The notes under the pieces were generated by a model, which was not told the origin of the DNA, did not search any database, and saw nothing but the letters and a program-made list of their open reading frames with translations. From NCBI GenBank assembly GCA_963828735.1, contig CAWHFW010000005.1, positions 2,432,001 through 2,496,000 on the forward strand: a DNA stretch of 64,000 nucleotides, read 5' to 3'. Source of the DNA: an uncultured Gemmatimonadales bacterium (lineage in GTDB: Bacteria > Gemmatimonadota > Gemmatimonadetes > Gemmatimonadales > GWC2-71-9). Within the stretch, counting starts at the first letter, position 1. Every line of letters starts with the position of its first letter. Made by a program: the position numbers and the translations under genes. Below are positions 25,709-60,979 of the stretch, one piece after another.

Positions 25709-25781
25709 TGCCCCTTGGTGTAACTGGCAACACGCCTGACTCTGGATCAGGAGAGTCCTGGTTCGAGCCCAGGAGGGGCAA
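25709..25781 (+). tRNA. tRNA-Gln(CTG), anchor of the downstream array
   Basis: TGCCCCT/AGGGGCA acceptor stem (U1-A72); anticodon arm CCTGA-CTCTGGA-TCAGG; GGTTCGA T-loop. Confidence 0.95.
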
Positions 25782-25782
25782 T

Positions 25783-25813
25783 GGCCGGTGCAATTGCACC
25801 GGCCGTTTTCTTT
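25783..25813 (+). terminator. Terminator after tRNA-Gln
   Basis: Perfect palindrome GGCCGGTGCAATTGCACCGGCC followed by GTTTTCTTT. Confidence 0.75.
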
Positions 25814-26041
25814 GGGGGGCCTGCTGGGGCCAGCCATGCCAACATGCCAGGAGCGCACGTGAGCGGTTCGTTCGTGCGGGCACGAAAGCGTTCATCCCTT
25901 TCTGAAACAATCCTCACCAACATCTCACCCCGTCTTATATCTCTGAAAGACACTTTGTACTTCCTCGAATTGTTGTCACCGTCGCGCGTTACACCGGCAA
26001 TAGGTCGCCGCCACGTTAATGACTCGAAAGACGGGAACACT

Positions 26042-27079
26042 ATGTCTCGACCAACGCTACTCGCCACCACGGTGGGCGGCCTCTGCCTGGCACTCGTGGC
26101 CTGTGAGAGCCCCTCCGGGGCTGGCCTCACGGAGCCAGAAACCAGAGGCCAAACGGCTCCAAGCGCAGCCGCCGCAGGCAGTGCTCTAACATTCAACGGC
26201 ACCTGGAGGACGATGCCCTCCCTTCAGCCGGCTCGCTGGCGGCATGCCGCGGATGTCCTCGGCAAGTCCATCGTCGTGGTTGGCGGGCTGAGCGGAGACC
26301 AACGGCAGGCCTTGAGCAGGGTCGACGCGTTCAATGTGGAGACGCGGACCTGGACTGCGTTGAAATCCTTGCCGATTCCGTTGTATGACGTCAACGGGGC
26401 GACCCCCGTCCAAGGCAAGCTTTACGTTTCAGGAGGGAGATCGTCACCGGACGAAGACTGCGCAAAAACTCTGTTCGTCTATGACCCCGCGACGAACTCC
26501 TGGGCTCGCAAGGCAGATATGCCATTCAAGGGGTGTGTCGGGGTCCAAGCTCACGTTCACGGTCAACTCTACGTGTACACCTTCCCCCAATCACCGCCGG
26601 ACATAAGGCTCTTCGCGTCGTACAATCCCAAGACGGATAAGTGGGTGCGCCGGCCCCTCCCCAAGGGCTTGCACTTCGCTTACCCAGTGGCCGGCGCAAT
26701 CGACGAGAAATTCTACCTCACTAGCGGAGAGGCGTTCACAGGACTTTCCGATAGTGAGCTCGAGGTCTATGATCCAGCGACCAGAACGTGGACCACGAAG
26801 AGTCCTATGCCCAGTGGACGGTCCGTTGCGTCCGCCGCCGTCCTGCATGGGAAGCTCTTTGTGGCCGGGGGTGTAGTGGACCGGAACGGCCTGGCGATTG
26901 TGACCGGCGCCATCGAGGCATATGACCCCCTGAGCGATACCTGGGCCACCGGACCGTCGATGCCCACTCCGAGGGCGCACGCAGCTTCCGCGTGGGCAGG
27001 TGGGAGGTTCTTCGTCATCGATGGTATTAGAGGTGGTCCATTGAGCAGCCAGGTCGAGGCCTTGTCGACGGCGTACTAG
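26042..27079 (+). CDS. Kelch-repeat beta-propeller lipoprotein
   Basis: Lipobox LVAC; six kelch-like repeats (VVGG..FNVETRTW, LYVSGG..YDPATNSW, and so on). Confidence 0.9.
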   Translation: MSRPTLLATTVGGLCLALVACESPSGAGLTEPETRGQTAPSAAAAGSALTFNGTWRTMPSLQPARWRHAADVLGKSIVVVGGLSGDQRQALSRVDAFNVETRTWTALKSLPIPLYDVNGATPVQGKLYVSGGRSSPDEDCAKTLFVYDPATNSWARKADMPFKGCVGVQAHVHGQLYVYTFPQSPPDIRLFASYNPKTDKWVRRPLPKGLHFAYPVAGAIDEKFYLTSGEAFTGLSDSELEVYDPATRTWTTKSPMPSGRSVASAAVLHGKLFVAGGVVDRNGLAIVTGAIEAYDPLSDTWATGPSMPTPRAHAASAWAGGRFFVIDGIRGGPLSSQVEALSTAY

Positions 27080-27120
27080 TACAGGTCAACACAGGCTCAC
27101 AACAGGCGACGTAGGCAAAG

Positions 27121-27150
27121 GGCCCCACTGGTCGCTGAACCAGTGGGGCC
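27121..27150. terminator. Hairpin after the kelch gene
   Basis: GGCCCCACTGGT-CGCTGA-ACCAGTGGGGCC. Confidence 0.65.
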
Positions 27151-27368
27151 GCTCGCGGCCAAACATCACCTCATTCCATGACGGTAGAGCTTAGCAATTC
27201 CAGCCCCTCGATGAGCTGAGTCTCACACACCCCTCGGCTCACTTCAGCACCTCACAGGCGCTCGGCATCGACGGCGAGCGGGTGAACGCCCACGAGCGGG
27301 AACGCCTGGCCAGCGGCCCGCTCTACCGTCAACGTGGAGCATGGCGGCTCTCCGCTGGGCCGACTTCA

Positions 27369-27574
27369 GCAAACTGTGACATTTGAGTGGGTAAAGTACG
27401 GCAAAGTCGAGCATTCAAGTGGCCAAACTCCAGCATCGGGTGACACGAACTCGCGTAAAGGCTGCAAGTTGCTGGAATTCGGGGTGTTCTACTGCCCCCT
27501 CTGGATCAGGAGAGTCCTGGTTCGAGCCCAGGAGGGGCAATCAAGCCCGGCAACGACTTAGCTGTTGCCGGGCT
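27369..27574 (+). repeat. att-like junction R1: arm + tRNA-Gln 3' half (27499-27540) + hairpin
   Basis: 42 nt identical to tRNA-Gln from CTCTGGA to GGGGCAA; upstream arm GACATTTGAGTG..CAGCATCGGGTGACACGAACTCGCGT..CAAGTTGCTGGA; hairpin AGCCCGGCAAC..GTTGCCGGGCT. Confidence 0.95.
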
Positions 27575-28339
27575 CGGCAAGGCCGTTGGGGGATCATCCT
27601 CACGCGGACTCGATCAAGCAAGAGCGGGGTACCTGCAGCGGAGGCTAGTGTACCGCTGCTATCAGGCGTTATCTGGATCCGCGAGCCTGACACACTGGGC
27701 GCTTCACCATTGCCGCAGCCAGCACCCAAGCCCAAAACAGAGCTGCCAAGTATTCCCGTAAGGCGGTGCACAAGCTGGCGGCGCGACACATGAGCCGAGA
27801 TCAATTCTTTCCAAAACGAAGTAAGAAGGCTGTCCATCTGACCCTCCCTTGAAGGAGTTAGCGAGGTAGGACATTTCCTGTGACTTCGTTTCCCACTGTT
27901 CGTCTGGCCGATCAACCATAGGTATGTCAGAACACTTCAGACCATGACTGAGTCAGCTCAAGCAATTGGAGGGGATACGCGGGCCCAGTCCATGCTCGAC
28001 TTCATGGCGCTTTGATGGTACAGGTAACAGTATGGGCAAGCCGCGGAAGGTGGACGACACGGCTACGCGGCTCACTGTGAAGATCGGCGAGATCCACGGC
28101 CATAAGGCGAACCTCAAAGCCGGCTGGTGGGTGCAGGCGAGGCTAGCCGTGGCTATTTGCAGCCCTGTGTGAGTTCCTCTGTGAGTTAGTTCCAGCGTTA
28201 AGTTCCCCGGAAAGCATGCCACAAGCTTCCATCCGGCCCTCTCAGCTGGTAAGCCCTCCTGAGGCAATAGGCGGCCAAGCGCCGGTCTACTGGCTTGCCG
28301 ATGCCGCTTCTACTTGGGATCAGAGAGATCGGTACCTCA

Positions 28340-28616
28340 CCAACCCGTAGATGAGCTGTCCGGAACCGACCTAGGGCTATCTCCGCAACCTTGGCATTCC
28401 CGGTGGCCCGATTCATCTGAGCATCAGAGTGTCCAGCCGTGCGTTCACGGAGTCCATCAACCGCATCTGCTGCCGCATGTCCATGCTCATCATCATGCCG
28501 TGATGCATATTGTCCGTGGCATATGCGGCCGGGTTGCTGCGCGGCCAGTGGGTGGGGTGGGTTCCGAGGAGCAGCGTCAACAGAGCCGCTCCGAATGCTC
28601 CGACCTTCATAGTCAC
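28340..28616 (-). pseudogene. Small secreted Met/His-rich protein, frameshifted or truncated
   Basis: Signal-like N-terminus and MHHGMMMSMDMRQQM. The helix RLDTLML appears to continue as MNRATGNAKVA in another frame. Confidence 0.45.
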
Positions 28617-28690
28617 AGCTCCTTATCCCGACAATGTGGCGCCGCCGAATGGATGCATCCGGCGGCGCCTTGATACCCGGGCAACGGCGC

Positions 28691-29804
28691 TTATGGAATG
28701 TACTGCAGGTTGTCAGCAGGCGCGGGGACTCCGCCCACCAGCTCGATACGCGGGCTGCCATTGCGCAGGACCTTGGTTCCCGCGGCGTTGACCACAGGGC
28801 TCGGCAGCGAGGCCCGCCGGGTCCACGCGTCGGTCACCGGGTCGTACACGATGGTGACATCCAGTTCCTGGAGCTCATTTGCGATCGGATCGTACCGAAG
28901 GCCGCCCATCACGTACAGCTTGCTACCCAGCACGGCCGTTGCCACACCGCTGCGTGCCAGTCCCAGTGGATTCTTGGCCGTCCACCGGTTGGTGGCAGGA
29001 TCATAGACGGACAAGCGTCCCTTATTTCCATAGTCTCCTCCCATTACGTAAAACTTTCCCCCAATCACCCCTCCCGCGAGCGGTGTCCACACCATCTCAT
29101 GCGCCGTCGCCGCGGGAAACGGCGGAGCGAGCGTGACCCACCGGTCGGTTACCGGGTCGTAGCGGAACAACCGTGGACCGGTGAGGTCGCCTTCGCAGAC
29201 GTCATCCTCAGTGTAGTACACGCGCGAGGAGCACCGTGTGACCACGTAGAGCTTGCCGTTGATCACGCCGGTCACACCGTTGGATCCCACCGTCCAGTCC
29301 TTACGTGGGACCTCCGATCGTCGGAAGGTCGTGCTTCCGGGTCCAGGTATTCGTGCCGGGATCGTACACGTAGAGCGCCCTAGTGGGAGGAGCGTCTCCG
29401 CTCGTTGAGAACCCGCCGGAGACGTAGATCTTTCCGTTGATCACGCCGGCGCCGTTGGACGACGCCAAGGGAACGGGGAGCGGCCGCCGCTCGGTCCAGG
29501 TATTGGTGGCGACATTGTAGGCCGTGACCTTCCTCAGCGGGCTCACCGGGTACACATCGGTAAATCCGCCTATCGCATAGACGATCGACTGCCCGGCTGC
29601 GTTCGTCACTGTAGCCACAGCAAGATTTCTCCGCACGCTCGGCAGGTTTTTCCGTGTGATCCAGCTGTTGCTGGCAACTACCAACTCGGGCCCGCTCAGC
29701 GTGGGCTCCGCTGGCTGGGTCGGCTCGGTTGAATTATCGCTGCACGCCGCGACCCAGGCCATGCTGAGGGCCAGTGCGCCGGGTACTAGTGAACAGTATC
29801 TCAT
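28691..29804 (-). pseudogene. Second kelch-repeat lipoprotein, split by a frameshift near 29300 (or a sequencing error)
   Basis: MRYCSLV..VAAC lipobox. Kelch repeats occur in both 29301-29804 and 28691-29290, which are offset by one base. Confidence 0.8.
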
Positions 29805-30199
29805 TGCGGTCTCTTCTTCCTTGGCGGGAGCGGCGCTCCCAGCAACCACGTACTCGGCGAGCGATTCACGCCAGCCGCTGCCTGATGCTCTAGGCAGGGC
29901 AATTATGCATCAGAGGCTCGGAAACGGTGGTGAGGTCCTGCTGAAGAATTCTTCATCCCTCCACCTTGCCCCCCGGGGTTCCTTGCAGCAACAATGAGCC
30001 GCACTCACCTCGGGATACATGCCCGGGTGTCCGGCGCCTGGTGCTTCATCGGCAGCGGGTCACGCATCGGAATCACAGCACCACCACTCGCAGCACCGGA
30101 GAACCTCCGAGGATCTTCTCAGTGCGCGGTACTGCATAATTGACGGTGCTGACACCGTGCGCATTCTACGAGGCTACAAGAAGTGTGGCTGCGGATCCG

Positions 30200-30411
30200 G
30201 CAAAGTACGACGTTTGAGTGAGTAAGTACGGGCAAAGTCCGGCATCCAAGCCGGCAAACTCTGGCAGCGGGTGACACGAACTCGCGTAAATGGTGGCAAG
30301 TTGCCGGAGTTTAGGCGGTTACAGCGGTCCCTCTGGATCAGGAGAGTCCTGGTTCGAGCCCAGGAGGGGCACTGAAAGCGCCGCATCGGGTTTCCCCGGT
30401 CGCGGCGCTTT
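30200..30411 (+). repeat. att-like junction R2 (tRNA half 30331-30371)
   Basis: Diverged arm, tRNA-Gln 3' half and hairpin AAAGCGCCGC..GCGGCGCTTT. Confidence 0.95.
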
Positions 30412-30462
30412 CCCTATTTGCGGCTCATGGCGGAGCAGAGTAGCCGGCCGGTCGCGTACCCC

Positions 30463-30501
30463 TTGCGCTCCAGTTGCCAGGTGTGTATGATGATCATCAT
30501 A
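30463..30501 (+). promoter_or_regulatory. tetR promoter with overlapping palindromic operator
   Basis: TTGCGC-17-TATGAT; perfect 16-bp palindrome TATGATGATCATCATA at 30486-30501. Confidence 0.7.
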
Positions 30502-31094
30502 TGAGAGCCGCCACCTCGAGAGGACCCGCCCCCAGCCGTAAGGAAGCCACCCACGAGCGCATCGTGGAGACCGCCGCCCGTGCCATTCGGCGGAGCGGGT
30601 ACGATGGCGCTGGCGTGGCCGAGATCATGAAGGAGGCAGGCCTCACCCACGGCGGCTTCTACGCTCACTTCGACTCGCGCGAAGGGATGTTGGCCGAAGC
30701 GGCAGACCGGGCCGGCGCTGACACAGTGGCCTTCCTGACGCGGGTCGCCGCTGCGGCACCGGCCAAGCAGGAGCTCGAGGCCATGCTCCGCAGCTATCTC
30801 TCGAAGGAGCATGTGGCAGCCCTCGACGGCGGATGCGCCGTCGCCGCGCTCGGCTCGGAGATGCCACGCCAGTCGACCAAGGTGCGCCGGGCCGCCACCC
30901 GCCGGATCAAGGAGATGATCGATCTGGTCGCTCGCCAGTCGCCGGATTGGGGCCAGCCTGGTGCGCACCAGCGCGCGCTCGTCACCATGGCTACAGCGCT
31001 CGGAGCCTTGGTCCTGGCCCGCGCCGTGGACGACCCCAAGCTCTCCGATGCGGTGCGCGAGGCGGCCCTGAACCATCTCACCCGAACAGGCTGA
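30501..31094 (+). CDS. TetR/AcrR family regulator
   Basis: THERIVETAARAIRRSGYDGAGVAEIMKEAGLTHGGFYAHFDSRE HTH. Confidence 0.95.
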   Translation: MRAATSRGPAPSRKEATHERIVETAARAIRRSGYDGAGVAEIMKEAGLTHGGFYAHFDSREGMLAEAADRAGADTVAFLTRVAAAAPAKQELEAMLRSYLSKEHVAALDGGCAVAALGSEMPRQSTKVRRAATRRIKEMIDLVARQSPDWGQPGAHQRALVTMATALGALVLARAVDDPKLSDAVREAALNHLTRTG

Positions 31095-31130
31095 TACTAT
31101 GCGCCGGTGCCGGATTTGCGTTTGCCTAGG

Positions 31131-31150
31131 AATATGATGATCGTCATATT
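31131..31150. promoter_or_regulatory. Second copy of the TetR operator, upstream of the SDR gene
   Basis: AATATGATGATCGTCATATT, a near-perfect palindrome whose 16-bp core differs from the first operator at one base. Confidence 0.7.
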
Positions 31151-31189
31151 GCAGTTGAAGAATGGACCCCAAGAGAAAGCGAGCACGGT

Positions 31190-32014
31190 ATGGCAGGCAA
31201 TCAGCAGCAGACTCGGCCCGTGGCGATCGTGACGGGCGTATCGGGAGGGATCGGCGAGGCCACCGCGCGGGCGCTTCACTCGGCCGGCTATCGGGTGTTC
31301 GGCACCTCACGCCGGGCGCCAGCGACGAAGTCGCCGGGGATCGAATACCTGGTGTGCGATGTGACCAGCGAGGAGTCGGTGCAGGCCGCGGTCGGTGAAG
31401 TGCTGTCCAAGGCAGGCCGCGTCGATCTCCTGGTCAACAACGCCGGGGTGGGATTAGTCGCCGGCGCGGAGGAGTCGTCGCTAGAACAGGCGAAGTCCCT
31501 CTTCGACGTCAACCTGTTCGGCCTGATTCGCATGACCAAGGCCGTCCTTCCCACCATGCGGAATCAGCGGGCGGGACGGATCGTCAACCTCAGCTCGGTC
31601 ATGGGGCTGATCCCGGCGCCGTTCATGGCCCTGTACGCAGCCAGCAAACACGCGGTGGAAGGCTATTCCGAGTCGCTGGACCATGAGATCAGGGGCTCGG
31701 GTGTCCGAGTGGTGCTGGTCGAGCCGGCTTATACCCGGACCGCTTTCGAAGGGAACGTCTACCAGGCAGACCAGCAGCTCGATGTCTACCGGTCGGCGCG
31801 AACGAATGCCGAGGGAGTTCTGCGGGATGGGATGAAAACCGCCGACACGCCGGAGCTGGTCGCGAGCGCTGTGGTGAAGGCCTCCACTGAGCTCAATCCG
31901 CGCCGCCGCTACACCGCAGGACGGGCCGCGCGCCAGATCAGTCTGCTCCGGCGCTTTGTTCCCACCGCGGCGTTCGACAAGAGTCTGCGGAAACAGATGC
32001 GCTTACCCGCTTGA
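31190..32014 (+). CDS. Short-chain dehydrogenase/reductase
   Basis: TGVSGGIG, NNAG, S..YAASK catalytic motif. Confidence 0.95.
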   Translation: MAGNQQQTRPVAIVTGVSGGIGEATARALHSAGYRVFGTSRRAPATKSPGIEYLVCDVTSEESVQAAVGEVLSKAGRVDLLVNNAGVGLVAGAEESSLEQAKSLFDVNLFGLIRMTKAVLPTMRNQRAGRIVNLSSVMGLIPAPFMALYAASKHAVEGYSESLDHEIRGSGVRVVLVEPAYTRTAFEGNVYQADQQLDVYRSARTNAEGVLRDGMKTADTPELVASAVVKASTELNPRRRYTAGRAARQISLLRRFVPTAAFDKSLRKQMRLPA

Positions 32015-32047
32015 AGCTATTCACGATTGCGCCTGAGGAGGCCCCCA

Positions 32048-32542
32048 ATGTTCACCAGAATCCAGAGTCCTGCGTTTGCGGTGCTGAGCCTGGGGCTCGT
32101 ATCCATCGGACACTCGCCGAATCGTCAGATTGTGACTCCGGCCGATACGGCAAGTCAGAATAACAAGATCGAGTTGTCCTATCATGTGAAGGCGATCAAG
32201 CGCGACAGCTCGGGACAGTACACCATGTCGGGTACGGTGAATGGCGAGCGGCAGGGTAAGGCGACCCTCGTGTTCGGCTTCGACGAGGGGTCGTCCGGGC
32301 AAGCCGGCAAGATACTGGTTCATTCGTACTGGGTAGTCACCGCGGTGCCGGCTTCAGAATCGTTCAAAGCAAAGTTGAGTGGAACCGCCGAGGCGGTCTC
32401 GGGTCAGACCCACCTGGTCGGCAAGATCACCGAAGGCGCCAACAAGGGGCATCGGGTCGAGACCAGCAGCCGGCTGCTCAACTTCGGACCTAACCATTCG
32501 CTCAGTGACATCGACGGCAACATGACTATTGACGGGAAGTAA
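32048..32542 (+). CDS. Secreted beta-rich hypothetical protein
   Basis: AGGAGG RBS, signal-like N-terminus, alternating beta-strand pattern. Confidence 0.6.
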   Translation: MFTRIQSPAFAVLSLGLVSIGHSPNRQIVTPADTASQNNKIELSYHVKAIKRDSSGQYTMSGTVNGERQGKATLVFGFDEGSSGQAGKILVHSYWVVTAVPASESFKAKLSGTAEAVSGQTHLVGKITEGANKGHRVETSSRLLNFGPNHSLSDIDGNMTIDGK

Positions 32543-32619
32543 GGGGTCGCAGAATGACCCCCATATCATGGGCTTTGCCGACAGGGCTGCCTCAGACAGC
32601 GACAGGGGCCCCCGACGGT

Positions 32620-32812
32620 GCGGTGTCCCACCGGGCGCGATGTTCGTGCCCCGGCCGCCCACGTAGCCGAGCCAGATGTTGAGCATGCCGAGCGGCTCCA
32701 GGTAGCGAGCGTTGGCGAGCGGGCCGCCATCCACCGGCTCGAACCCTATGCTCCCGGCCAGTCGGCGCACCGTATCCTTGGCGTCGGCTTCGTCGCCCGC
32801 GTAGAAGACCTC
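32620..32812 (-). pseudogene. C-terminal fragment of an NADPH-dependent F420-reductase-like oxidoreductase
   Basis: VFYAGDEADAKDTVRRLAGSIGFEPVDGGPLANARYLEPLGMLNIWLGY. The N-terminal Rossmann part is missing and the fragment ends next to the R3 arm. Confidence 0.75.
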
Positions 32813-32853
32813 TGACAAGAGATCGGCGCAAAGCCTCTCGGTTTGAGAGTGTG

Positions 32854-33088
32854 ACAAACTCTAACATTTGAGTGAGTAAAGTACGGCAAAGTCCAGCATG
32901 AAACCCAGCAAACTCCAGCATCGGGTGACACGAACTCGCGCAAATGACTGCAAGTTGCTGGAATTCGGCTGGTTCTGCGGGTCCCTCTGGATCAGGAGAG
33001 TCCTGGTTCGAGCCCAGGAGGGGCAATGAAGCCCGGCAACGACTTAGCCGTTGTCGGGCTTCGTCTATTTACCCGCCTGCCGTAGGTT
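32854..33088 (+). repeat. att-like junction R3 (tRNA half 32985-33026)
   Basis: Arm, 42-nt tRNA half, AAGCCCGGCAACG hairpin, then CCCGCCTGCCGTAG. Confidence 0.95.
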
Positions 33089-33099
33089 CTCTGCTCTGC

Positions 33100-33400
33100 C
33101 TAGCCTACAATCCGCAGCTGTCTCGGAGCGTTCATCACCCGGAGCATCGACGCCTCATCGGTCTGCTGGTAGCACGTGAGACGGGTGTTGGTGTCTCTCC
33201 AACCCCCAGTTGCTTTCACGTCAACCAGTGGGAGATCCTTCCGCTCCCGTAACCCTTCCGCCGGAACGGATGCCAAGCACCTCCCTTCAGGTGTTCCAGA
33301 CCGGCTTTCTGTTCCGCCACGAGGAGTTGTTCTCCAAAGATCTCGCGGGGCCGGAGTCGCGTCAGAGTGTGGGAAAGATCGTGTGGGTGTGAGGTGCTCG
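33100..33400 (-). pseudogene. Tyrosine recombinase C-terminal remnant (frameshifted)
   Basis: REIFGEQLLVAEQKAGLEHLKGGAWHPFRRK / ERKDLPLVDVKATGGWRDTNTRLTCYQQTDEASMLRVM, showing HxxR, W and the catalytic Y. Confidence 0.8.
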
Positions 33401-33561
33401 TACACTCGCCCTGCCACACTCGCCCTGCCACTCCACGAGGTGGCGGCCGGGTTGCATGAGAACCTCGGCTGCGGTCGGAAACGGACTCCTATGGTGTACG
33501 CCGTCCCGAGGATCGTAAGAGCCTTGGCAGCCCTTTGCCGGGAGGCATGACCCCCGTCCGA

Positions 33562-34123: not shown

Positions 34124-34204
34124 GTGGCATCTGCCGGGAGTGGGTTACCGGCGCGTGACTGGGCTACCTGATGCTAACGCCGTTCGAAGTGTTTGTCACG
34201 AAAC

Positions 34205-34322
34205 CGAGCCGACCACGACGAGCCCAACCTGATCATCCAGCGTGCCGGCTAGCGCCAGTGCTTCTTCCTTGTCTCCAGCCGTGAACACGACGTAGCCGGA
34301 CTTCGCAAGCATCCTGGCCGTT
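34205..34322 (-). pseudogene. Fragment of a second receiver domain
   Basis: Manual translation TARMLAKSGYVVFTAGDKEEALALAGTLDDQVGLVVVGS. Confidence 0.5.
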
Positions 34323-34924: not shown

Positions 34925-34960
34925 CGCAGCTGGAATTTCCCAAGCGCTGGCCGTCTAGGC

Positions 34961-35636: not shown

Positions 35637-35649
35637 CCGCGGAGGGTGC

Positions 35650-51206: not shown

Positions 51207-53402
51207 GTGTTGCAACTCCAGGTTCTCGGCAGTATCACGGTCACCGCCAACGGCGGCGCGACCAGCGGTGCGGCCGCGCAACGCAAGGCGCTCGCCCTCC
51301 TGGCGTTGCTCGCGGCCGCCGGGAGGCGCGGCCTCAGCCGCGACCGGATCCTGGCCATGCTGTGGCCTGAAACGCCGGCCGATCGGGCCAACCACCGTCT
51401 CACCCAGCTGCTCTACAGCCTGCGGCGCGACCTCGGCTCGGCCGAGCTGTTCCTCGGGTCGGCGGACCTCCGGCTCAATTCCGAGGCACTCGCGGTCGAC
51501 CTGGCTGAGTTCACCGCCGCACTCGAGGGGGGTGAGTTCGCGCGCGCCGTTGCAGCCTATGGGGGCCCTTTCCTGGATGGGTTCTTTCTCAGCGGCGCGT
51601 CCGACTTCGAGCACTGGGTGGAGCAGGAGCGTGCCCGCCTCGCTCAACGGCATACCGCCGCCCTGGAGGCGCTGGCCCGCGGCGCCGCCATGGACGGAGA
51701 CATTGTGGCGTCCGCCGGTTGGTGGCGGCAGCTGGCTCTGGTCGAGCCGCTCAACAGCCGTGTGGCCGTCTGTTACATGGAGGCGCTCGCCACCGCCGGC
51801 GATCGGCCCAGCGCCCTTCGCTTCGCGCGGGCGCACGAGACGCTGCTGCGCGATGAGTTCGACACGGGGCCAGATGCAGCGGTTGTCGCCGCGGCCGAGC
51901 GACTGAGGTGCCTGCCGGCCGCATCGCCGGCTACCGGTGCGTCGGCCGCGCCTGCCATCGCCGTACTGCCGCTCGCTAATCTCACACCTGACGGTGAGGC
52001 TGAGTATTTCAGCGATGGATTGACGGAAGAACTCGCTAACGCCCTGGCCCGAGTACCCGGCCTGCGCGTCGCCTCCCGCACATCGGTCTACGCCCTCCGT
52101 GGCAAAGGTCTGGACGTGCGGGAGATCGCCGACCAGCTAGGGGTGATCGCGCTAGTGGAGGGCACTGTGCGCAAGGTGGGGAACCGCATCCGCCTGTGTG
52201 TCCGGCTGCTCGATGCGGGTGACGGCTCCCAACTTTGGTCGGATACCTACGACCGAACCCTTGAGGACGTGTTTGTGCTTCAGGAGGAGTTGTCGCGAGC
52301 GGTGACGGCGGCGCTGCCCGTCGGGCTAGGCCGCCGTACGCCTCCGTCGGTGCGTCCACCGACGACCCTGCTGGACGCGTATACGCTGTACCTTCGCGGT
52401 CGGTATGCGGCCCAGAAGCGAACGCCTGAAGGGCTATCCCTGGGGATCGAGTACTACGAACAGGCGGTCGAGCGGGATCCGGGCTTCGCCCTAGCTCATG
52501 CCGGGCTCGCCGAGTGCTGGGCGCTCCGCGGGTTTCCGGAGTTCGGCGATTTGGAGTGGTCTAAGGCCGTGCCGCGGGCGCGCGCGGCCGCCCTTGAGGC
52601 CCTCCGGCTCGATCCGCGCCTGGCTCAGACCCATACTTGGCTCGGCGTCATCCACTTTCTCTATGACTGGGACTGGGCCGCCGCGGAGGCGGAGTTCCGC
52701 CGAGCGCTCCACCTGGATCCGAACCACGCCATCGCCGAACTTTGGTACGCAGTTTTCTTGGGGGCGATGGGACGACATGAGGAGAGTCTCCGGCGCATTC
52801 TCCATGCTGAGGCGGTCGAGCCGCTCTCACTTCCGATTCGGCTCTCAGTGGGTCGTTGCTACTACTACGCCCGGCGCTACGAGCAGGCGCACGATGCGCT
52901 GGCTAGCCTGCTGAAGAGCGAGCCGGGCCACGAGCTCACGGTGGTCTGGCTGGCTAGGACCCTCTGCGCTCTCAACCGGCCGCTCGATGCGGTGGACCTG
53001 TTGGAGCGGCTGGTGGGGGCGGAGCGAACCCCGTATGTCCGTTTCATGCTCGCCTACTCGCTTGCGACCTCGGGTCGTGAAGAGGAGGCGCGTGTGCTAT
53101 ACGGTGACCTGCAAAGGGACTTCGCTGAAGGACGCGCGGGGGCTCTGTGGATGGGAGCGATTCTGGCACGTCTGGGCGAGCGCAACGCCGGCTTGGAGCT
53201 CTTGCAGGAGGCCGTCCGTCGCCGGGAGCCCTTCGTCGTCTGGCTCCCGTGCGATGAGCGTTATGATCCGCTTCACAATCACCCGGGCTTTATCGCCCTG
53301 CTCCGGGAGCTTCGATTCGGCGCTGCTGTAGACGCGGCCGATTCCAACGAGGTGAATCTTCCCTTGTCCGAGACTCGGTCGGGTAAGCTTGGCCGAGAAT
53401 AA
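51207..53402 (+). CDS. SARP-like regulator: wHTH + BTAD + TolB-like + TPR
   Basis: LQVLG..LALLA..SRDRILAMLWPE, GPFLDGF..FEHW, IAVLPLANL..EYFSDGLTEEL and TPR repeats. GTG start approximate. Confidence 0.9.
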   Translation: MLQLQVLGSITVTANGGATSGAAAQRKALALLALLAAAGRRGLSRDRILAMLWPETPADRANHRLTQLLYSLRRDLGSAELFLGSADLRLNSEALAVDLAEFTAALEGGEFARAVAAYGGPFLDGFFLSGASDFEHWVEQERARLAQRHTAALEALARGAAMDGDIVASAGWWRQLALVEPLNSRVAVCYMEALATAGDRPSALRFARAHETLLRDEFDTGPDAAVVAAAERLRCLPAASPATGASAAPAIAVLPLANLTPDGEAEYFSDGLTEELANALARVPGLRVASRTSVYALRGKGLDVREIADQLGVIALVEGTVRKVGNRIRLCVRLLDAGDGSQLWSDTYDRTLEDVFVLQEELSRAVTAALPVGLGRRTPPSVRPPTTLLDAYTLYLRGRYAAQKRTPEGLSLGIEYYEQAVERDPGFALAHAGLAECWALRGFPEFGDLEWSKAVPRARAAALEALRLDPRLAQTHTWLGVIHFLYDWDWAAAEAEFRRALHLDPNHAIAELWYAVFLGAMGRHEESLRRILHAEAVEPLSLPIRLSVGRCYYYARRYEQAHDALASLLKSEPGHELTVVWLARTLCALNRPLDAVDLLERLVGAERTPYVRFMLAYSLATSGREEEARVLYGDLQRDFAEGRAGALWMGAILARLGERNAGLELLQEAVRRREPFVVWLPCDERYDPLHNHPGFIALLRELRFGAAVDAADSNEVNLPLSETRSGKLGRE

Positions 53403-53468
53403 GCGCCACATCAGGTACGCTGATGTGGCGCTTCGCCTATTTCCATGGGGTGTGAGTCAGTGAGTGAG
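53401..53468 (+). repeat. Right-half junction without tRNA sequence (hairpin + TGAGT arm)
   Basis: AAGCGCCACATCAG-GTACG-CTGATGTGGCGCTT-CGCCTATTT..GGGGTGTGAGTCAGTGAGTGAG, laid out as after R3b and R4. Confidence 0.75.
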
Positions 53469-53587
53469 GCTATTCCGGCGCTCTAGCCTCGACTGCACGT
53501 TGAAGCGACGCTAGCCGGCGCAGTGGAAGCTGATTCGGACCACGCAGAGGAATTGACGAGGCTGCCAACCAGCATCCCACGCGGCCA

Positions 53588-53724
53588 GCAGACTCCGACA
53601 TTTGAGTGAGGAAGGTACGGCAAGGTCGAGCATTCAAGCCAGCAAACCCCAGCATCGGGTGACGCGAACTCGCGTAATTGGTAGCAAGTTGCTGGAGTTT
53701 GGGTGGTTACAGCGGCTCCTCTGG
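53588..53724 (+). repeat. Left-half junction R7 (arm ending at CTCTGG)
   Basis: Complete ~130-bp arm; identity to the tRNA stops after CTCTGG. Confidence 0.9.
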
Positions 53725-53726
53725 CC

Positions 53727-53849
53727 TCACGCCCTGCGTTTTGTGTCGAACGTGGGCGGCCCTGGCTTCACGAACTCCGCCACGGCGCGCAGGGTGTCGT
53801 CATCCGGCTGCTGGTAACAGTCGATGAGCGTGCTGATGTCCTTCCAGCA
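53727..53849 (-). pseudogene. Tyrosine recombinase extreme C-terminal remnant
   Basis: Manual translation WKDISTLIDCYQQPDDDTLRAVAEFVKPGPPTFDTKRRA*. Confidence 0.7.
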
Positions 53850-54428
53850 TCAAGAGTTCTCTGGCGATTATAGTCGCCGCCTGTTTCAAATCAGCTATGG
53901 CGGGAAGGTGCTGAACTCGCAACGAACGTTCGATCTGCTTCTGAATGCCTCGAAGTTTCATAAGGATCGCGACAAGCAGGTTGCACTCGAAGAGCTCAGG
54001 AAGGTGTTCCCGCCCGATATTTCTGGACGCGGTGTTCTATGACATTCTCGTGGACAAAGCCGTCGCCATGTTGAACCCGGCGTATTTGATTGGGCAGCTG
54101 CAGCGGCTCACGGGCACGCCAGAAGCGTCCGAGGGACCTCCTCCAGATGCGTTCTCTGGTGGTGTTGGAAGGTAGTTGAGCGTCTCAGGCGAGGGCACGG
54201 GAAGGGTCCGCTGCTCGGCCCAGACGCCAGCCGCCTCATCATTGCCCGGAACCTGTCCGTGCCCTTGAGTATCCGTTTCCAATGCAATGATCGCAATCAG
54301 ATGTGGAAGAACTTTAAGTTAAGGTACCGGTTCATCATTTCAGGCCGGTCAGATATCGGGCCCTAGACCCCAAGGCGAAGGGCCGATACCACTTCGGTGG
54401 GTCGGGCCGTTCGCTTCCGCGCCCGCTG

Positions 54429-57395
54429 CTACTCAACACCGAGCCGCACCAGCCCTTCCCGCGCTTCCGCCACGTAGGGCAGCAGCTCCCGATCTGGTCG
54501 GCGCCAAGCCGCCAGCACGAAGCCGAAGCACTCGGCCGCCTTCCGCGCGTCCCCGAGCCGTTCGGCGATACGGCCGAGCTCGAGCGTGGCGAGCACGAAC
54601 GAGGGCGTGCTGCCGCCGCTCCACCGCCAGCGCTCCAGCACGGCGCCGGCGCGCCGATCGTCACCGCGAGCCGCCAGGAGCCGCGCCAGCGTCAGGTTCA
54701 GGTGAAAGCAGTTGGCGGTGTACCAGTCGGCCAGGCAGAGCGTGTCGGGGATCGCGCTCAGCTTCCGGATCGCCGCGCCCGTATCCCCTCGTGCCAGATC
54801 GAGGAACGCGACGCTCGTCTCTCCGAGCAGCCGAGCCCGCAGGGCCGCGTACGGGGTGGCGGGTGCCCGCGCCGTGCGAGCCGCCTGGGCGCCGAAGCGG
54901 CGCAGGGCCGCCGTGTCGCCGCGCGACAGCCACCAGGGCAGCCCCCTCAAGTGACGGGGAGTGTAGAAGAGCCCCCAGGCGGCAGTTGTCTCGAGGGAGC
55001 GACCGAAGGTCGCACGGGCCAGCGAGTCCGGAACGATCCCGAGCAGGCTGAGATCCACGGAAGGGGCGACTGAAGTCGCTCCACGGCGAGGCCAAGGGCT
55101 GGCGCAGCAGCCGCTCATTCACGGCATAGGCCTCGCGCAGGTGGCCCCGGAATGCGAGTGCGCGAGCCAGGTACTGCGGCCACATGACCGAGTCGCGGAC
55201 CCAAGGGACGACGCCTCCACCTGCGTCTCGGCCAGGCTCGCCGAGGCGCCGCAGCACCCGAATTGCGGTCTCGGCCGTGTCGGTCCAGGAGGAGAGCTGG
55301 TTGAGCGCAGCGCCCCAGATGGTGTAGACCGATGCCGTGTCGAGCATTCGCTCCGCCTCGGCTCTGCCGCCGGGACCCGGATCCAGCAACAGCGCCGCCA
55401 AGCGGATTTCGGATCCGTGCGGGGAGGTCGAGTCGAGGGCCAGGTAGGTGGCCGCGTAGCGCCGGGATTCCTCCGGGCGTCCAAGGGACAGAAGCAGTGC
55501 CGGCATGTGCTCGTAGGCTGGCCCGAAGCCCGGATCCAGCGCGATTGCGCGGGTGAAGGCCTCGAGTGACACGGCCGGCGGCCCGGCAATGGGCCATGGT
55601 TCGTGGTCCATGCGCCATTCGCCTAGCGCATACCAGGACACGGGGTCTTCGGGGTAGCGTCGGACCGCCTCCTCCGCCGCCGACACTGCGCGGAATTTCA
55701 GGTGGACGAACGCCTCCGCATCGGTCACCTCCGCCGCTGCGAGGTTGAAGGAGTCGGCGACGATGTAGAGACTGTCCCGCGGGGGAAGCCCGTGGTTGTG
55801 GAGGGTCGCACGCCGCCGGTACTCCTCTTGTGGCCGGTACGCGCCGGTCGTCGGCGGGTTCCAGCCGAGCACCATGGCCATCTGTGCCAGCGGCAGCGCG
55901 AACGTGCTGTCGGCCGCGATCGCCTGATCGTAGCGGGTGAGCGCCGAGTCCCACTGCCCCCGCCGGTAGAACTGTTCGCCCTGGAGGAACGCCTTCAGCG
56001 CCGGCAGCGACTTCGAGCCGATCGACGTCCCGCGGGCCGAGCCGATCGCCCGGGCGGGCGAGAGCACCCTCAGCGCCCGGATCCCCAGGGAGTCAGCCAG
56101 CTCGGCGATGCGGGCGGCCTCCCCCGACACCTCGATGTCCGTCTTTCCCATTCCTCCGGCACGGTCGAGCAGGGCGGCGCGGAGCGTCACCGAGTCCCGC
56201 CCTCGCCGCACCACCGCGCCGTAGAGGACCAGCCCCGCGCCGGTGCGGCGGCCCAGCTCCTCGGCGGATGTACGATCGGCCCGGCCGCTCCAGCGCCGGA
56301 GCACCACGCTCGGCGACACCGTGCGGATCGGGCCGGCCCCGTCGAGCGTGCGGGAGAGCACGTCGCCCATCCCCTCCCGCCAGACCTCGAGTGACGGCTC
56401 CAGCACCTCGAACGGGGCGACCGCGAGCAGGTTGGCGTCGCGGGCGTCTTCGGCGGCAGGCCGAGTGCGGAGCCAGACGCCGGCGCCGGCGAGAGCGACC
56501 AGGAGCACCGCCGCAGCGGCCAGCAGACCTCGTCGAACGGCCGGACTCACGGCCCCGCTGGGCGCGCCTGCCGCGGCTTCCAGCGCCCTCGCGAAGGCCG
56601 GCGCGTCCGCGAACCGGTCCGCCGGCGCGCGGGCCAGCGCCTGCCTTACGGCGCGCTCGACCGGTCGCGGGACGTCACGCACCGTGCAGAGGTCGGGCAC
56701 GGGATCCGTCAGCCGACGGGCGATGAGGGCCTGTGCCGTCCGCCCGGTGAACGGCGGCTCGCCCGCGAGCATCTCGTACACCACGCACCCGAGCGAGTAG
56801 ATATCGCTTCGGGGGTCGAGATGATGGTCGGCCGCGGCCTGCTCCGGACTCATGTAGGCCGGCGTGCCCAGCGCGAAGCCGGTCTCCGTCAGGCGCTCGC
56901 CGGCGGCGTCCACGGCTCGGGCGACGCCGAAGTCGGCGAGCACGCATCGCTCGCCCTGGAGCAGGATGTTCTCGGGCTTGACGTCGCGATGGATGATGCC
57001 CTGCCGCTGGGCGTATCCCAGCGCGTCGGCCACCGCCCGGGTGATCCGCACCGCATCCGCCAGCGGGAGCTGGGGCTCGCGCGTCAGTCGGTTCCGGAGC
57101 GACTCGCCCTCCACGTAGGGCATAGTGAACCAGAGCCGGCCGACAGTTTCACCGGAGTCGTGGACCGACAGGATGTGTGGGTGGTCGAGGCGGCCGGCAA
57201 GCTTGATCTCCCGGATGAACCGCTCGGGACCCAGCGCGTGCGCCAGCTCGGGATGCAGGACCTTCAGGGCGACCGGCCGGTCGTGCCGGAGATCGCGGGC
57301 GAGATAGACCGTGGCCATGCCGCCACGGCCGAGCTCACGCTCGAGCACGTAGCGGTCCCGGAACGCGTCGGCGAGCTCTTGGTTGACTGACGTCG
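54429..57395 (-). CDS. Hanks-type Ser/Thr kinase with TM, TolB-like and TPR region; frameshift near 55070
   Basis: LGRGGMATVY, HRDVKPEN, DFG, GTPAYMSPEQ. The C-terminal helices (VDLSLLGIVP..EAREGLVRLGVE) continue in ORF 54429-55118. Start approximate. Confidence 0.9.
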
Positions 57396-57562
57396 CGTCA
57401 CTGCCTAAGGAGAGATACTGCAATGTGTCGGGCGAACTCGGGCGCCGCCAGCCGCGATTCGAGGCTTCCGGATCGGAGAGAGCAACAGCGGTAACGCTGC
57501 TCGTCAGTCCACGGGCTCGTAACGGACCGCTCCGTCGGCGATGATGATGTGCCTCAGTCCCG

Positions 57563-57715
57563 ACAAACTCTGACATTTGTGTGAGTAAAGTACGGCAAAG
57601 TCGAGCATGAAACCCAGCAAACTCCAGCATCGGGTGCCACGAACTCGCGTAAAGGGTAACAAGTTGCTGGACTTCGGCTGGTTACCACGGCCCCTCTGGA
57701 TCAGGAGAGGCCCAG
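57563..57715 (+). repeat. Junction R8 (arm + truncated tRNA half 57694-57709)
   Basis: Arm almost identical to R5; the tRNA match ends at GGAGAG, then GCCCAG. Confidence 0.95.
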
Positions 57716-57727
57716 CTGCGTCCGGTC

Positions 57728-60700
57728 TCAGTGCCGGCCCGCGGCACGAAGGAGCTCGGCCAGCTCGATTCGGACCGTGTCAGCTTGAGCCCTGAGCCGG
57801 GGCTCGGGGGCACTCCGAAGCGCGAGATAGTGACGATAGGCCCGGATCGCGCCCGCCGTGTCACCCAGTGACGCTGCGAGGCGGCCCTCTTCCCGGCGAT
57901 AGCGCACGTAGTGAGGATAGGTGGCGCAGCCGATGATCCGCCGGCGAAGGGCGGCCAGCGCAGCCGCCGTATCGCCGGCGTCCTCGTGGAGTCGCGCGGC
58001 GACCAGGTTGCCATAGGTGAAGAGTGGGGGTCTGCCGAAGTCGAAAACGTTGAAAGGCATCCGCGGGTTCGCCAGCACGGAGTCGAGCTGCCGCAGGCGC
58101 ATCCGGGCTTCAGGTGAGCCTTCGCGCGCATCGAGTTGAGCTTCGAGCAGTAGCGCAAAGGCGCGAGGCTCGTCGGCCTGCCACACGCTGTCGGGGTGGG
58201 GCTTTGCCCCGCGGAGGTCGGCAATGGCTAGACGCACCGGGCTCAGGTTACCGACCTTCAGGTTGTACTGGCCCGCCGCGTAGCGCGCCAAGGTTGCGTC
58301 GCGATCTGCGGCGGCGAATCGTGATCCAAGTTGCCGCTCCAGGCTTCGTGCCCCCTCGGCGGCTTGCCCGGAATCACCATCGGCAAACAGCCCGTCTAGT
58401 ACGGCGAGACTCTGCCCGCCAATGCCTGGCCAAACCCTTGAGAGGGGGGGCGATTTACCGGGCCGTCCAGAGGTCAGCTCGTAGCGACTCCAGAGTAAGG
58501 CAGCGAGCTTCCGTTCCTCCGCGGTCGCCGCCTGAGCGTACGCGCGTCGGTATAAGTGCTCCACGCCGCCGGTGTCGAGAGGCACGGCTCCGTCCAAGGC
58601 ATTGACGAGCAGATTTGTCGGCAAGGGGCCGAGGGCGCTGTCGCTCGCGAGCAATCGCCGGGCTTCTGCCGTATCACCCAGCCATACGGCGGGATGCCAC
58701 AGCCGCGCAATCGTGAACGACGACACGGAGTCTACTTGCCGGAGGAGGGCTCGCCCGCGAAGCACGCCGGCCGTATCATCGAAGAGCGCGGCGACCTCGG
58801 TCAAGTGCTGAAGGGTTGGGGCGTAGCTCGAGTCGAGCGTCAGCGAGCGAGCAAAGGCTGCGACTGCACGCGGAAGTGCCTCGGGTACGCTGGCCAGGGC
58901 GCCAAGGTGGAAGAGGCCGTCGGCGAGCTTGTACCATGCGTCCGGGCTATCCGGAGCCAGCTCCACGAGGCGCTCCGTCGTTTCCACCATGTCGCGCGCC
59001 CCGGAAGGTGCGGGGTACCTCGGGCCGAGTTGAACGGTGAGGCGGGCCAGATCTCGGGCCGACAAGCGATCGCGGTGGCGCCAGGCAGCCTCCACGGGTG
59101 CATCGCTTCGTCCACTCGTCTGCCACTCGCCGGCTCGCGCCGTGCCCACGCCCGCGAGCGCGAAGGTGGAATCGATCTGGAACGCGTTGACGAACTTCTC
59201 GGACGCTTCACCGAACCTGCCTCGCCTCAGCAGCGCCTCGCCGTCCAGGTAGGCCCGCAGCGCCGGCAGTGACGTGCTGGTGAGCCCAGCGAGCCGCTGC
59301 TCCCCCTCTCCCGACCCGAGCGCGAGGAGGGTCGCCGCCAGGCGGTCCACGAGCTGCGTCAGGCTGTCCGGCGAACCCTCCGCCGTCGCGCGGGCACGCA
59401 CCGACCCGCTCGGCACGTCCACGATGCGGGCGCTCAGGGAGACCCTGCCGCGACTGCCGACGACTTCCCCTTCCACCATCCGTCCCGCACCGAGAGCTGC
59501 AGCCACCCGGACCGCGTCGTCCTCAGGCAGCTCACCGCCTCCGCGCGAGGCGCGGCCCCAGGCGGCCAGGAGCGTTCGGGGGTCTGCCGGCCGCAGGGCC
59601 GCCGTGCCGCTCAGCTTGGTCGACAGGAGGTCTACCATTCCCTCCCGCAGGTAGCCGAGTGAGGAATCCGCACCGGTGACCCGGAAGGGGGCGACGGCGA
59701 TGACGCTCCGGTCGAGGGCCACCGGCCGCTCATGGTTTCGCATGAGCGCCACCATGGCCACGAGCGTCAGGGCCGCGCCGCCGCCTGCCACGAGCCAGCG
59801 GGTGCGGTGGGACCCTTCCTGGTGCCGCGCTGGGGCCCGCTCGAGGACATGGGTGGCGGCCGGCGTCGCGACGCTGGGCCGAAGCGACTGGGCCATCTCA
59901 CCCGCCGACGCGAACCGGTCCGCCGGCGTGCGGGCGAGCGCGCGCTGCACGACGTCGTCCACGTCAGCCGGCACCTCCGGCCGCGTCACGCGAACGGGCG
60001 TAGGCGAAGTGCTGAATCGCTTCGCCATGATTGCCTGCGCCGTAGGTCCCGTGAACGGCGGCTCACCGCAAAGCATTTCGTACAGCACGCATCCCAGTGA
60101 GTAGATGTCGCTTCGGGCATCGAGCTGGCGCTCACCTGCCGCCTGCTCCGGGCTCATGTACGCGGGGGTGCCCACGGTGAGCCCGGTCTGGGTCAGCGCC
60201 TCCTCGCTCGCGAGCGCGCGGGCCACCCCGAAGTCCGCGATGAGCGTGTTGCCGTCACGGGTGAGGAGCAGGTTCTCGGGCTTGATGTCGCGGTGGAGGA
60301 CGTCGTGCTCGTGGGCGTATTGGAGGGCCTGTGCCGCTTCGCGCCCGATCCGGAGGGCGTCCTCGAGCGAGAGCTGCCGGTCGCGCGTCAGTCGCTCGCG
60401 CAGGCTCTCGCCCTCGACGTACGGCATGGTGAACCAGAGCTGTCCACCCGACTCGCCCGAGTCGAGCACGGTGAGGATGTGCGGGTGCTGCAACCGGGCT
60501 GCATAGCGGATTTCGCGCTGGAAGCGATCGGGACCGAGCGTGGTGGTAAGGTCAGGGTGGAGTACCTTCAGCGCCACCGATCGGTCGTGCCTGAGGTCGT
60601 GCGCGAGATAGACCGTAGCCATGCCACCACGGCCGAGCTCGCGCTCGAGCGTGTAGCGGTCGGTCAGGGCGGCCTTGAGGCTTTCCAGAGGCTCGGTCAG
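57728..60700 (-). CDS. Hanks-type Ser/Thr kinase with TM, TolB-like and TPR region
   Basis: LTDRYTLERELGRGGMATVY, HRDIKPEN, DFG, GTPAYMSPEQ. The frame extends upstream of the ATG at 60622; start uncertain. Confidence 0.92.
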   Translation of the reverse strand: MTEPLESLKAALTDRYTLERELGRGGMATVYLAHDLRHDRSVALKVLHPDLTTTLGPDRFQREIRYAARLQHPHILTVLDSGESGGQLWFTMPYVEGESLRERLTRDRQLSLEDALRIGREAAQALQYAHEHDVLHRDIKPENLLLTRDGNTLIADFGVARALASEEALTQTGLTVGTPAYMSPEQAAGERQLDARSDIYSLGCVLYEMLCGEPPFTGPTAQAIMAKRFSTSPTPVRVTRPEVPADVDDVVQRALARTPADRFASAGEMAQSLRPSVATPAATHVLERAPARHQEGSHRTRWLVAGGGAALTLVAMVALMRNHERPVALDRSVIAVAPFRVTGADSSLGYLREGMVDLLSTKLSGTAALRPADPRTLLAAWGRASRGGGELPEDDAVRVAAALGAGRMVEGEVVGSRGRVSLSARIVDVPSGSVRARATAEGSPDSLTQLVDRLAATLLALGSGEGEQRLAGLTSTSLPALRAYLDGEALLRRGRFGEASEKFVNAFQIDSTFALAGVGTARAGEWQTSGRSDAPVEAAWRHRDRLSARDLARLTVQLGPRYPAPSGARDMVETTERLVELAPDSPDAWYKLADGLFHLGALASVPEALPRAVAAFARSLTLDSSYAPTLQHLTEVAALFDDTAGVLRGRALLRQVDSVSSFTIARLWHPAVWLGDTAEARRLLASDSALGPLPTNLLVNALDGAVPLDTGGVEHLYRRAYAQAATAEERKLAALLWSRYELTSGRPGKSPPLSRVWPGIGGQSLAVLDGLFADGDSGQAAEGARSLERQLGSRFAAADRDATLARYAAGQYNLKVGNLSPVRLAIADLRGAKPHPDSVWQADEPRAFALLLEAQLDAREGSPEARMRLRQLDSVLANPRMPFNVFDFGRPPLFTYGNLVAARLHEDAGDTAAALAALRRRIIGCATYPHYVRYRREEGRLAASLGDTAGAIRAYRHYLALRSAPEPRLRAQADTVRIELAELLRAAGRH

Positions 60701-60895
60701 AGAGACGTGCCGGAGCGGGGTACCTCTAGGCTATACCCGAGGGCACTGACAGACCAGAGCCAGCCGCAATTGCTACCGTTTCTGCTACAGTTTCTCCGGG
60801 CAAAACCGGGCATTTCTGGGCAGGGAAGCGGGCACCATGCTCGGTAAGTGACCGTTTCCGGGCAACTTGACCGGAACCGCTGCCCCGGCGGTACC

Positions 60896-60979
60896 GACTC
60901 TGGATCAGGAGAGTCCTGGTTCCAGCCCAGGAGGGGCAACTCGAAGGTCCGACCCTGCTTCGGTGGTGTCGGGCCTTTT
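60896..60979 (+). repeat. Last visible junction R9: tRNA-Gln 3' half (60896-60939) + terminator-like hairpin, with an unrelated upstream arm
   Basis: GACTCTGGATCAGGAGAGTCCTGGTTCCAGCCCAGGAGGGGCAA (one mismatch to the tRNA); AAGGTCCGAC..GTCGGGCCTTTT. Confidence 0.92.

Follow-up and report, generated by a model that had tools for sequence, protein, structure and literature searches.

The tRNA-Gln locus and its array of modules

We analyzed a stretch of 64,000 nucleotides (the window) from an uncultured Gemmatimonadales bacterium (GenBank assembly GCA_963828735.1, contig CAWHFW010000005.1, positions 2,432,001 to 2,496,000), in which an intact tRNA-Gln(CTG) gene, identified by both ARAGORN and Rfam, is followed by a tandem array of small cargo modules separated by displaced 3' parts of the same tRNA and mostly closed, in the window, by a conserved arm. 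This gene is the integration target, and the identity of the displaced junctions with it begins at 25740, in the anticodon loop. Across the whole genome 17 displaced tRNA-Gln(CTG) junctions extend over ~63 kb, nine inside the window and eight past it, out to window-equivalent position 88583, with decayed copies beyond; from core to core the modules measure 1.2-7.3 kb. Their cargo is metabolic and regulatory by Pfam (kelch proteins, TetR/SDR, transporters, ArsA, kinases and a glycosidase), and in 85 open reading frames (ORFs), of which the array and the DNA behind it contributed 81, Pfam recognized no phage, conjugation or replication genes, as had been noted from the sequence alone. We argue below that such integrase-free modules travel between species with exact ends, and we lean toward seeing them as passengers of rare visiting integrase elements. 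The features of the locus are:

25616..25690, + strand: tRNA-Ala(CGC), the upstream neighbor; the same tRNA pair is kept in relatives
25709..25781, + strand: intact tRNA-Gln(CTG)
25740..27498, + strand: module 1, with tRNA 3' half, terminator, kelch-repeat gene and arm A (27369-27498)
27499..30330, + strand: module 2, with kelch gene in two ORFs, small protein and arm A (30200-30330)
28166..28548, - strand: cryptic right end within module 2, with type-A arm repeats and integrase stub, no tRNA half
30331..32984, + strand: module 3, with TetR, SDR, unknown ORF and arm A (32854-32984); its twin, at 99.5% identity, is module 1 of genome G122
32985..36358, + strand: module 4, with type-C arm repeat, stub (33103-33350, - strand), response regulator, cupin, SnoaL and arm A (36228-36358)
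34961..35050, + strand: lone right half, with the last 16 nt of the tRNA, hairpin and type-A arm repeats
36359..40983, + strand: module 5, with type-A repeats, clade-A stub (36517-36780, - strand), Na/H exchanger, AI-2E transporter, DUF302 and arm A (40853-40983)
36383..36403, + strand: T-loop insert of 21 nt, a double hairpin, in the displaced half following the 36228 arm
40984..48274, + strand: module 6, with type-C repeats, the longest stub (41103-41486, - strand), DUF488, cupin, VIT1, ArsA ATPase and arm A (48144-48274)
48275..53719, + strand: module 7, with aldehyde dehydrogenase-like gene, BTAD/TPR regulator, hairpin and type-A repeats (53401-53470) and arm A (53588-53719)
53720..57693, + strand: module 8, with 6-nt core remnant, clade-A stub (53730-53849, - strand), Ser/Thr kinase-TPR and arm A (57563-57693)
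57694..60897, + strand: module 9, with 19-nt core remnant, Ser/Thr kinase-TPR and type-B arm (about 60767-60897)
60898..64000, + strand: module 10, with GH31 glycosidase; runs on to window-equivalent 64181

A sequence-only reading of this DNA had described an intact tRNA-Gln followed by direct repeats from 27369 to 57563, and all eight of its arm starts were located where it placed them. The coordinates of its repeat units also hold, but the copy at 57563 has lost its hairpin and all but 19 nt of the tRNA half, and the left half at 53588 has only 6 nt of the tRNA half left, abutting an integrase stub. Of its two right halves the one at 34961 stands, whereas that at 53401 consists of a hairpin and arm repeats without a single tRNA letter. 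A distinct arm was indeed found before 60898, near the different-arm copy it gave at 60896. The array it delimited is real, but it overlooked the cryptic right end at 28166 and the eight outer junctions.

The genome comprises 7 contigs (97.5% complete, 5.2% contaminated), and the sequencing runs containing the stretch come from soil or rhizosphere wherever a habitat is recorded. Two other ARAGORN calls of tRNA-Gln(CTG) (G000:C4:85199-85293 and C5:1368399-1368487) are unlike the real gene and look spurious, and a second, decayed tRNA-Ala/tRNA-Gln pair lies within the array of genome G113 (L069 near 11462). The kelch gene of module 2 (28691-29609) is split into two ORFs by either a true frameshift or a sequencing error. 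A cupin gene is duplicated (93-94%) at 34560-34964 in module 4 and 42376-42783 in module 6; these modules, sharing this gene and a type-C integrase stub, are probably paralogous.

The arm and its distribution

The arm is ~130 nt long and starts at 27369, 30200, 32854, 36228, 40853, 48144, 53588 and 57563. Its central 17-mer has 8 matches where 0.02 are expected by chance, and the arm profile gave no hits in 20 shuffles of the array. In the whole genome the profile has 23 hits, and a genome-wide repeat is ruled out by the 19 of these that lie in or behind the array; the other four fall at two places with tRNA-Gln halves, one beside a tRNA-Lys gene and the other beside what we read as a tRNA-Lys-like fragment. 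There are at least four arm types, each having its own repeats, and copies of the type that dominates here (arm A) are only ~75% alike within this array. Within the genus, 58 of 103 genomes have arm A, and among the best ones 28 of 46 do; all compared genomes are metagenome bins, and four of the 58 are flagged as unpublished, with only tallies resting on them. The profile search across this genome and its relatives, proposed with the sequence-only reading, placed the arm in this genome mostly at the array. Because the elements with clade-A integrases (our name for the integrase group that goes with arm A) in G046 and G070 close with arm A or its homologue, arm A is taken to be the distal attachment arm of a tyrosine-integrase element, and this reading is firm.

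Other identities for the arm did not hold. Rfam matched just the two tRNAs, leaving no known RNA, and as a structured RNA or an attC site the arm offers one inverted repeat on its top strand, with a single two-sided change among 9 pairs; we read this repeat as a putative palindromic protein site. Homogenization of arms inside arrays was rejected, arm identity being 75% within genomes and 77% between them. The arms at 40853-40983 and 57563-57693 differ at 4 of ~130 positions with unrelated cargo, which may be due to recent recombination or conversion inside the array. In folds of 27494-27540 and of other arm-A junctions, the letters where arm A passes into the core are able to form an acceptor-stem-like pairing with the 3' end of the tRNA. 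Off the arrays, pieces of arm A with tRNA-Gln halves lie near tRNA-Lys genes or a tRNA-Lys-like fragment (L007:9335-10700, L006:12260-12400, G000:C5:753620-753700), two of them inverted around an SDR-like gene, and a near-identical lone arm-A junction is found in two genomes (G113:C1 near 10092, G100:C1 near 8339).

Movement of modules between species

Over its full length module 3 (2.65 kb, TetR/SDR) is 99.5% identical to G122 module 1, while the DNA upstream of the tRNA in the two genomes is 67-77% identical; the twins hold different ranks in their arrays and differ in both neighbors. Likewise, module 12 matches G113 module 1 at 96.1% against a background of 68-84%, again with different neighbors; discounting a 21-nt insert, the two have equal length. 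End-to-end sharing was seen for four families, comprising 13 pairs, among 111 closed modules, and the left boundary of shared modules falls exactly at the core regardless of the DNA upstream. In contigs from runs of four studies, four of the alleles that set the G122 copy apart are found again, which argues against mis-assembly. Thus, integrase-free modules very likely move between species with exact ends. It had been suggested that content and order be compared across relatives, with identical order pointing to an inert locus: both differ, and modules are shared between different neighbors. The TetR/SDR cargo also occurs without nearby attachment (att) sites in many genomes (53 of 103 have a match, three of them unpublished), and is therefore recruited from a wider pool.

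Integrase stubs and their intact relatives

Seven C-terminal stubs of tyrosine integrases, oriented toward the tRNA, lie in the array, and no intact cognate integrase was found in this genome, whose only two full PF00589 matches read as XerC and XerD; the absence of an intact integrase noted from the sequence alone is borne out. An integrase of the same family at tRNA-Ile (G000:C5:597390-599276), ~40% identical, is full length but split across several frames, which could be sequencing errors in a long-contig bin; a second stub faces it. The search for full-length integrases that match the stubs, also proposed earlier, found none here and no uninterrupted clade-A integrase in the same 103 genomes, where G070 and G019 have broken ones. 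Intact versions with type-A repeats sit behind tRNA-Gln in the metagenome contigs L090, L091, L093 and L094.

The cognate integrases have an N-terminal extension, and the intact elements carry arm repeats on both sides. Three genomes display informative stages: 1) in G100, module 1 is a 12.4-kb element with an intact 421-codon integrase frame directly behind the tRNA and the same short repeats at both ends. 2) In G046, an arm-A homologue closes a 22-kb element with an intact clade-A integrase, and the next module, of 1.8 kb, has this arm too and gave no integrase hit. 3) In G070, which belongs to the genus, a clade-A integrase with an internal deletion and type-A repeats lies in a 16.1-kb element closed by a canonical arm A with no intervening junction. 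The named relatives of these integrases come from Gemmatimonadales and Gemmatimonadota bins. Intact elements encode an excisionase-like helix-turn-helix (HTH) protein and mostly defense cargo; no replication genes were seen in the helper candidates. One helper contig has a NikA/MobA-like gene scoring below the NCBIfam cut-off, and the 365-aa ORF adjoining it was rejected as a relaxase, its Atlas neighbors being unnamed or HEPN-like. A phage helper was likewise not supported, viral contigs having no match to the arm or integrase and phage and plasmid records giving only distant hits of 28-31%; this negative carries little weight because soil Gemmatimonadota phages are probably poorly sampled.

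One-armed modules and mosaic arms

Arm A terminates 49 of the 76 closed modules, and these have a median length of 2.8 kb. Most modules have the core at both ends, yet by a strict pattern over 150 nt only 5 of these 49 start with matching type-A repeats, and 7 start with repeats of another type. Most junctions therefore look like half-sites, and the earlier proposal that each internal junction is attP-like is not supported. With distance from the tRNA the arm score, from a profile built on relatives only, drops (rho -0.59, p 0.016, n 16) and mismatches in the tRNA half increase (rho 0.51, p 0.043, n 16); module addition looks one-ended, to judge from these sequences.

The arms are also mosaic. 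Between module 3 and its G122 twin there are 13 differences over 2,520 nt, compared with 9 over the arm's 134 nt, and 7 of these 9 lie in its last 44 nt, next to the core. Five arms of one cargo-side lineage differ at 1-3 of 58 nt on the cargo side versus 6-15 of 42 on the core side, two arms of G002 are identical on the core side with 14 of 58 differences on the cargo side, and other cognate arm pairs have no core-side excess. Such mosaics may arise either from deletion of a neighbor by recombination between successive arms or from exchange by transformation.

Hairpin inserts in the displaced T-loops

Double-hairpin inserts of 21 or 24 nt occupy one position in the T-loop of 16 of 91 displaced halves (nine of them in this genome, at window positions 36383-36403 and within G000:C5:2496206-2520651) and of none of 38 intact genes. 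In this genome junctions 13-18 carry two units each, junctions 11, 12 and 5 one, and the others none, so that inserts are present in 8/8 distal junctions versus 1/7 proximal displaced junctions keeping the T-loop. The twins of modules 12 and 13 in other genomes are free of them; relatives have up to three stacked units, and G098 and G104 have the same double insert. The first stem varies but stays paired at all four positions in 21 of 24 parsed distinct units (seven variants), the remaining three looking mis-parsed. Nine of ten matches to the 21-mer and five of five to the 24-mer lie in tRNA-Gln halves; the inserts are not dispersed through the genome. We read them as two probable waves that struck the halves present at the time. 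No Y1 transposase for them was found in this genome, halves with an insert, folded singly as DNA, did no better than shuffles, and a loose genome-wide double-hairpin pattern was discarded as its 87 matches are mostly chance.

Related units of 66-100 nt, located at this same T-loop position, reconstitute the 3' end of the tRNA; they are found behind intact genes as well (18 seen). They supply a terminator and frequently finish with a segment antisense to their T-loop target (25764-25830; L036:6631-6700; L024:123-212), and the terminator following the tRNA of this genome seems to be left over from such a unit. Some tRNA-Gln halves (L104, L106, L066 near 325 and L033 near 3480) are preceded by a conserved stretch that we take, from motifs, to resemble the 3' end of a group I intron. 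The SDR4-6 elements of cyanobacteria are comparable in being structured, 21-24 nt long (sizes as commonly given) and inserted at a precise position. The inserts share with them very short length and structure kept despite sequence change, but are distinct in that they lie in the T-loop of displaced tRNA-Gln halves and stack up to three; the likeness drawn here is one of description. Precise insertion is described for SDR5 in the cited passages (PMC4390886). We found no account of T-loop inserts in literature that covers subscription papers thinly.

A model for the array and its alternatives

We consider it somewhat more probable than otherwise that the array formed by tandem accretion of modules that are similar to cis-mobilizable elements (CIMEs) and hitch-hike on rare visiting integrase elements. 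In this model: 1) several clades of tyrosine-integrase elements would enter at the anticodon loop, restore the tRNA and displace older modules outward. 2) The integrase and the tRNA-proximal arm would be deleted, leaving the tRNA 3' half, terminator, cargo and distal arm. 3) Modules would then pass between species keeping exact ends. 4) A clade-A helper would land at an intact tRNA and its integrase would join the helper's proximal arm with a resident's distal arm A; the composite would leave and enter a new host, from which the helper would later drop out. 5) Homologous recombination between successive arms may prune modules and leave mosaic arms. Entry at the tRNA followed by loss through deletion is almost certain from the anatomy and the intermediates, with seven stubs where intact genes would sit and partly deleted states in G070 and G019. 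Travel in cis, modeled on CIME accretion and mobilization, is on balance the favored course. The distal arm and the tRNA half would be kept because a cis-mobilized passenger needs only those, and its tRNA half must still allow the gene to be restored once the helper has left; the one-arm asymmetry is better explained by this than by mobilization in trans. Much of the sequence-only reading is retained here (repeated integrase entry, the arm as an att arm, non-autonomy, variable content and movement), its complete attP being the part given up.

Several points weigh against this model. Helper rarity may be overstated because the relatives were partly selected by their arms and bins lose mobile DNA, and the proximal-repeat count will have missed degenerate or deeper copies. 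The distance gradients are modest. Distal modules too have close relatives (module 13 at 97.7% over 1.8 kb in G118, module 12 at 98% over 685 nt in G002). The mosaic arms, whose halves are often uncoupled, point to homologous recombination acting here as well. Beyond the HTH gene, defense cargo and single NikA/MobA-like gene, no relaxase or type IV secretion system was recognized in the helper candidates, and this genome has neither a coupling protein nor a PF03432 relaxase. Finally, in the short contigs searched we saw neither circles nor empty sites nor a composite of helper and module in transit, and among 15 of 37 joints there was no clean module circle.

Mobilization in trans is an alternative that we think unlikely. 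Here a visiting or remote integrase would recombine two successive arm-A junctions, or RecA would pop out a module, and the one-armed circle would enter the tRNA. The small size of the modules and the conservation of the arm where the cognate integrase is missing agree with this, as does the position of arm-A modules without an integrase hit directly behind the intact tRNA in G000, G113, G117, G122, G015, G026 and G007. However, the cognate integrases have their N-terminal extension and two-sided arm repeats, and arm-binding tyrosine integrases normally require both arms; this genome, moreover, has yielded neither circles nor an intact cognate gene. That arm A and a tRNA half are a sufficient recombination site by themselves, in a genus-wide pool of one-armed cassettes served by a borrowed integrase, is correspondingly doubtful. 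We are also skeptical that integrases merely built the scaffold and that modules now spread by homologous recombination in the tRNA half and arm, for instance after natural transformation. The core-side excess in five arms with the opposite pattern in G002, the clustering of differences beside the core in module 3 and the presence of ComEC speak for such exchange, but mosaic arms also follow from neighbor deletion, and other cognate pairs lack the excess. Further, recombination alone would not add modules at one end, would blur the clean layers of inserts and would hardly set the left boundary of shared modules exactly at the core. An inert, vertically inherited graveyard of decayed islands, or an assembly artefact, is most improbable and already largely refuted. 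Stubs, deletions and truncated halves are common and every compared genome is a bin, yet neither vertical decay nor mis-assembly fits near-identical modules in a diverged background with different neighbors, alleles recurring in independent studies, or an array of dissimilar arm copies inside a single 2.76-Mb contig free of Ns.

Comparison with known systems

Integrase-less tandem islands are usually treated as dead remnants, and here they are seen moving between species with exact ends, in a soil genus of which more than half of the sampled genomes have the arm and whose cells seem rarely to hold the integrase. Now that the cognate integrase, its two arms and a naturally occurring pair of helper and module are identified, a standing question becomes testable: can decayed islands with flanking att sites serve as a working gene-capture system, and does a single arm suffice? 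The T-loop inserts give an internal order of events. Islander requires an integrase for every island (PMC4383910), and tandem integrase-less islands are skipped because of this demand. By its terms the locus has an intact tDNA and displaced fragments in direct orientation, but only integrase stubs, whereas islands in G100 and G046 have their own tyrosine integrase.

Integrons are one-ended arrays of small cargo units added beside a fixed site, and the stacking of small units at one end of a fixed site here is alike. Nevertheless, the array is not an integron: it has no IntI, its sites are of the double-stranded arm type, and its multi-gene modules lie in both orientations. The cognate integrase scores 22 bits on TIGR02249 (cut-off 265), and no integron integrase was found. 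None of the 17 junctions has attC boxes (consensus as commonly given), and the bottom-strand consensus fold was matched by 4 of 30 column shuffles. The earlier suggestion of an integron analogue is weakened on these grounds and by the lack of a resident recombinase. Were arm A and a tRNA half sufficient, the array would amount to a tRNA-based integron analogue whose recombinase is borrowed, and a new family of micro-elements in the T-loops would serve as its time stamps.

Closer parallels are found among islands at tRNA and tmRNA genes, each compared here through the passages cited. Dehalococcoides strain VS has 11 ssrA repeats with similarity around each extending ~150 bp (PMC2764846), and of the 31 ssrA islands in this genus 15, which have been proposed to be CIMEs, are without an integration module (PMC3146451). 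Shared features are displaced target fragments behind one tDNA and many islands without an integration module; there a serine recombinase acts at the tmRNA gene, whereas here several tyrosine-integrase clades acted at tRNA-Gln to give 17 junctions, the genome has no intact integrase, the modules are smaller and near-identical integrase-free modules occur across species. Streptococcal CIMEs are cargo segments of 1.2-13 kb that lie between att sites and encode neither a recombinase nor transfer functions; they are moved by a helper integrating beside them, and decayed elements lie farthest from the target gene (PMC5704250, PMC7563491). Those composites have two or three elements and a helper that is an integrative and conjugative element or an integrative and mobilizable element, as opposed to up to 17 mostly one-armed elements and no conjugation system found here. 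As in CIMEs, the modules have no functional recombinase or transfer genes and derive by deletion from integrase elements; the array works like a CIME array, yet we do not assign it to the CIMEs. The tycheposons of Prochlorococcus are transient integrase elements at tRNAs that push older material outward, leaving broken integrases and partial tRNAs, and similarly have an inward-facing integrase and defense or metabolic cargo (bioRxiv 10.1101/2020.12.28.424599); their remnants are without clear boundaries in the cited passages, unlike the precise ends and movement seen here, where no replication module was seen.

In literature covering subscription papers thinly, we found no description of tRNA islands of Gemmatimonadota or of integrase-less or integron-like tRNA arrays. 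Hence, the array is of a type known in kind, and what differs from the cited passages is its size, its genus-wide spread with a rare helper, its one-arm asymmetry and the direct signs that its modules move across species.

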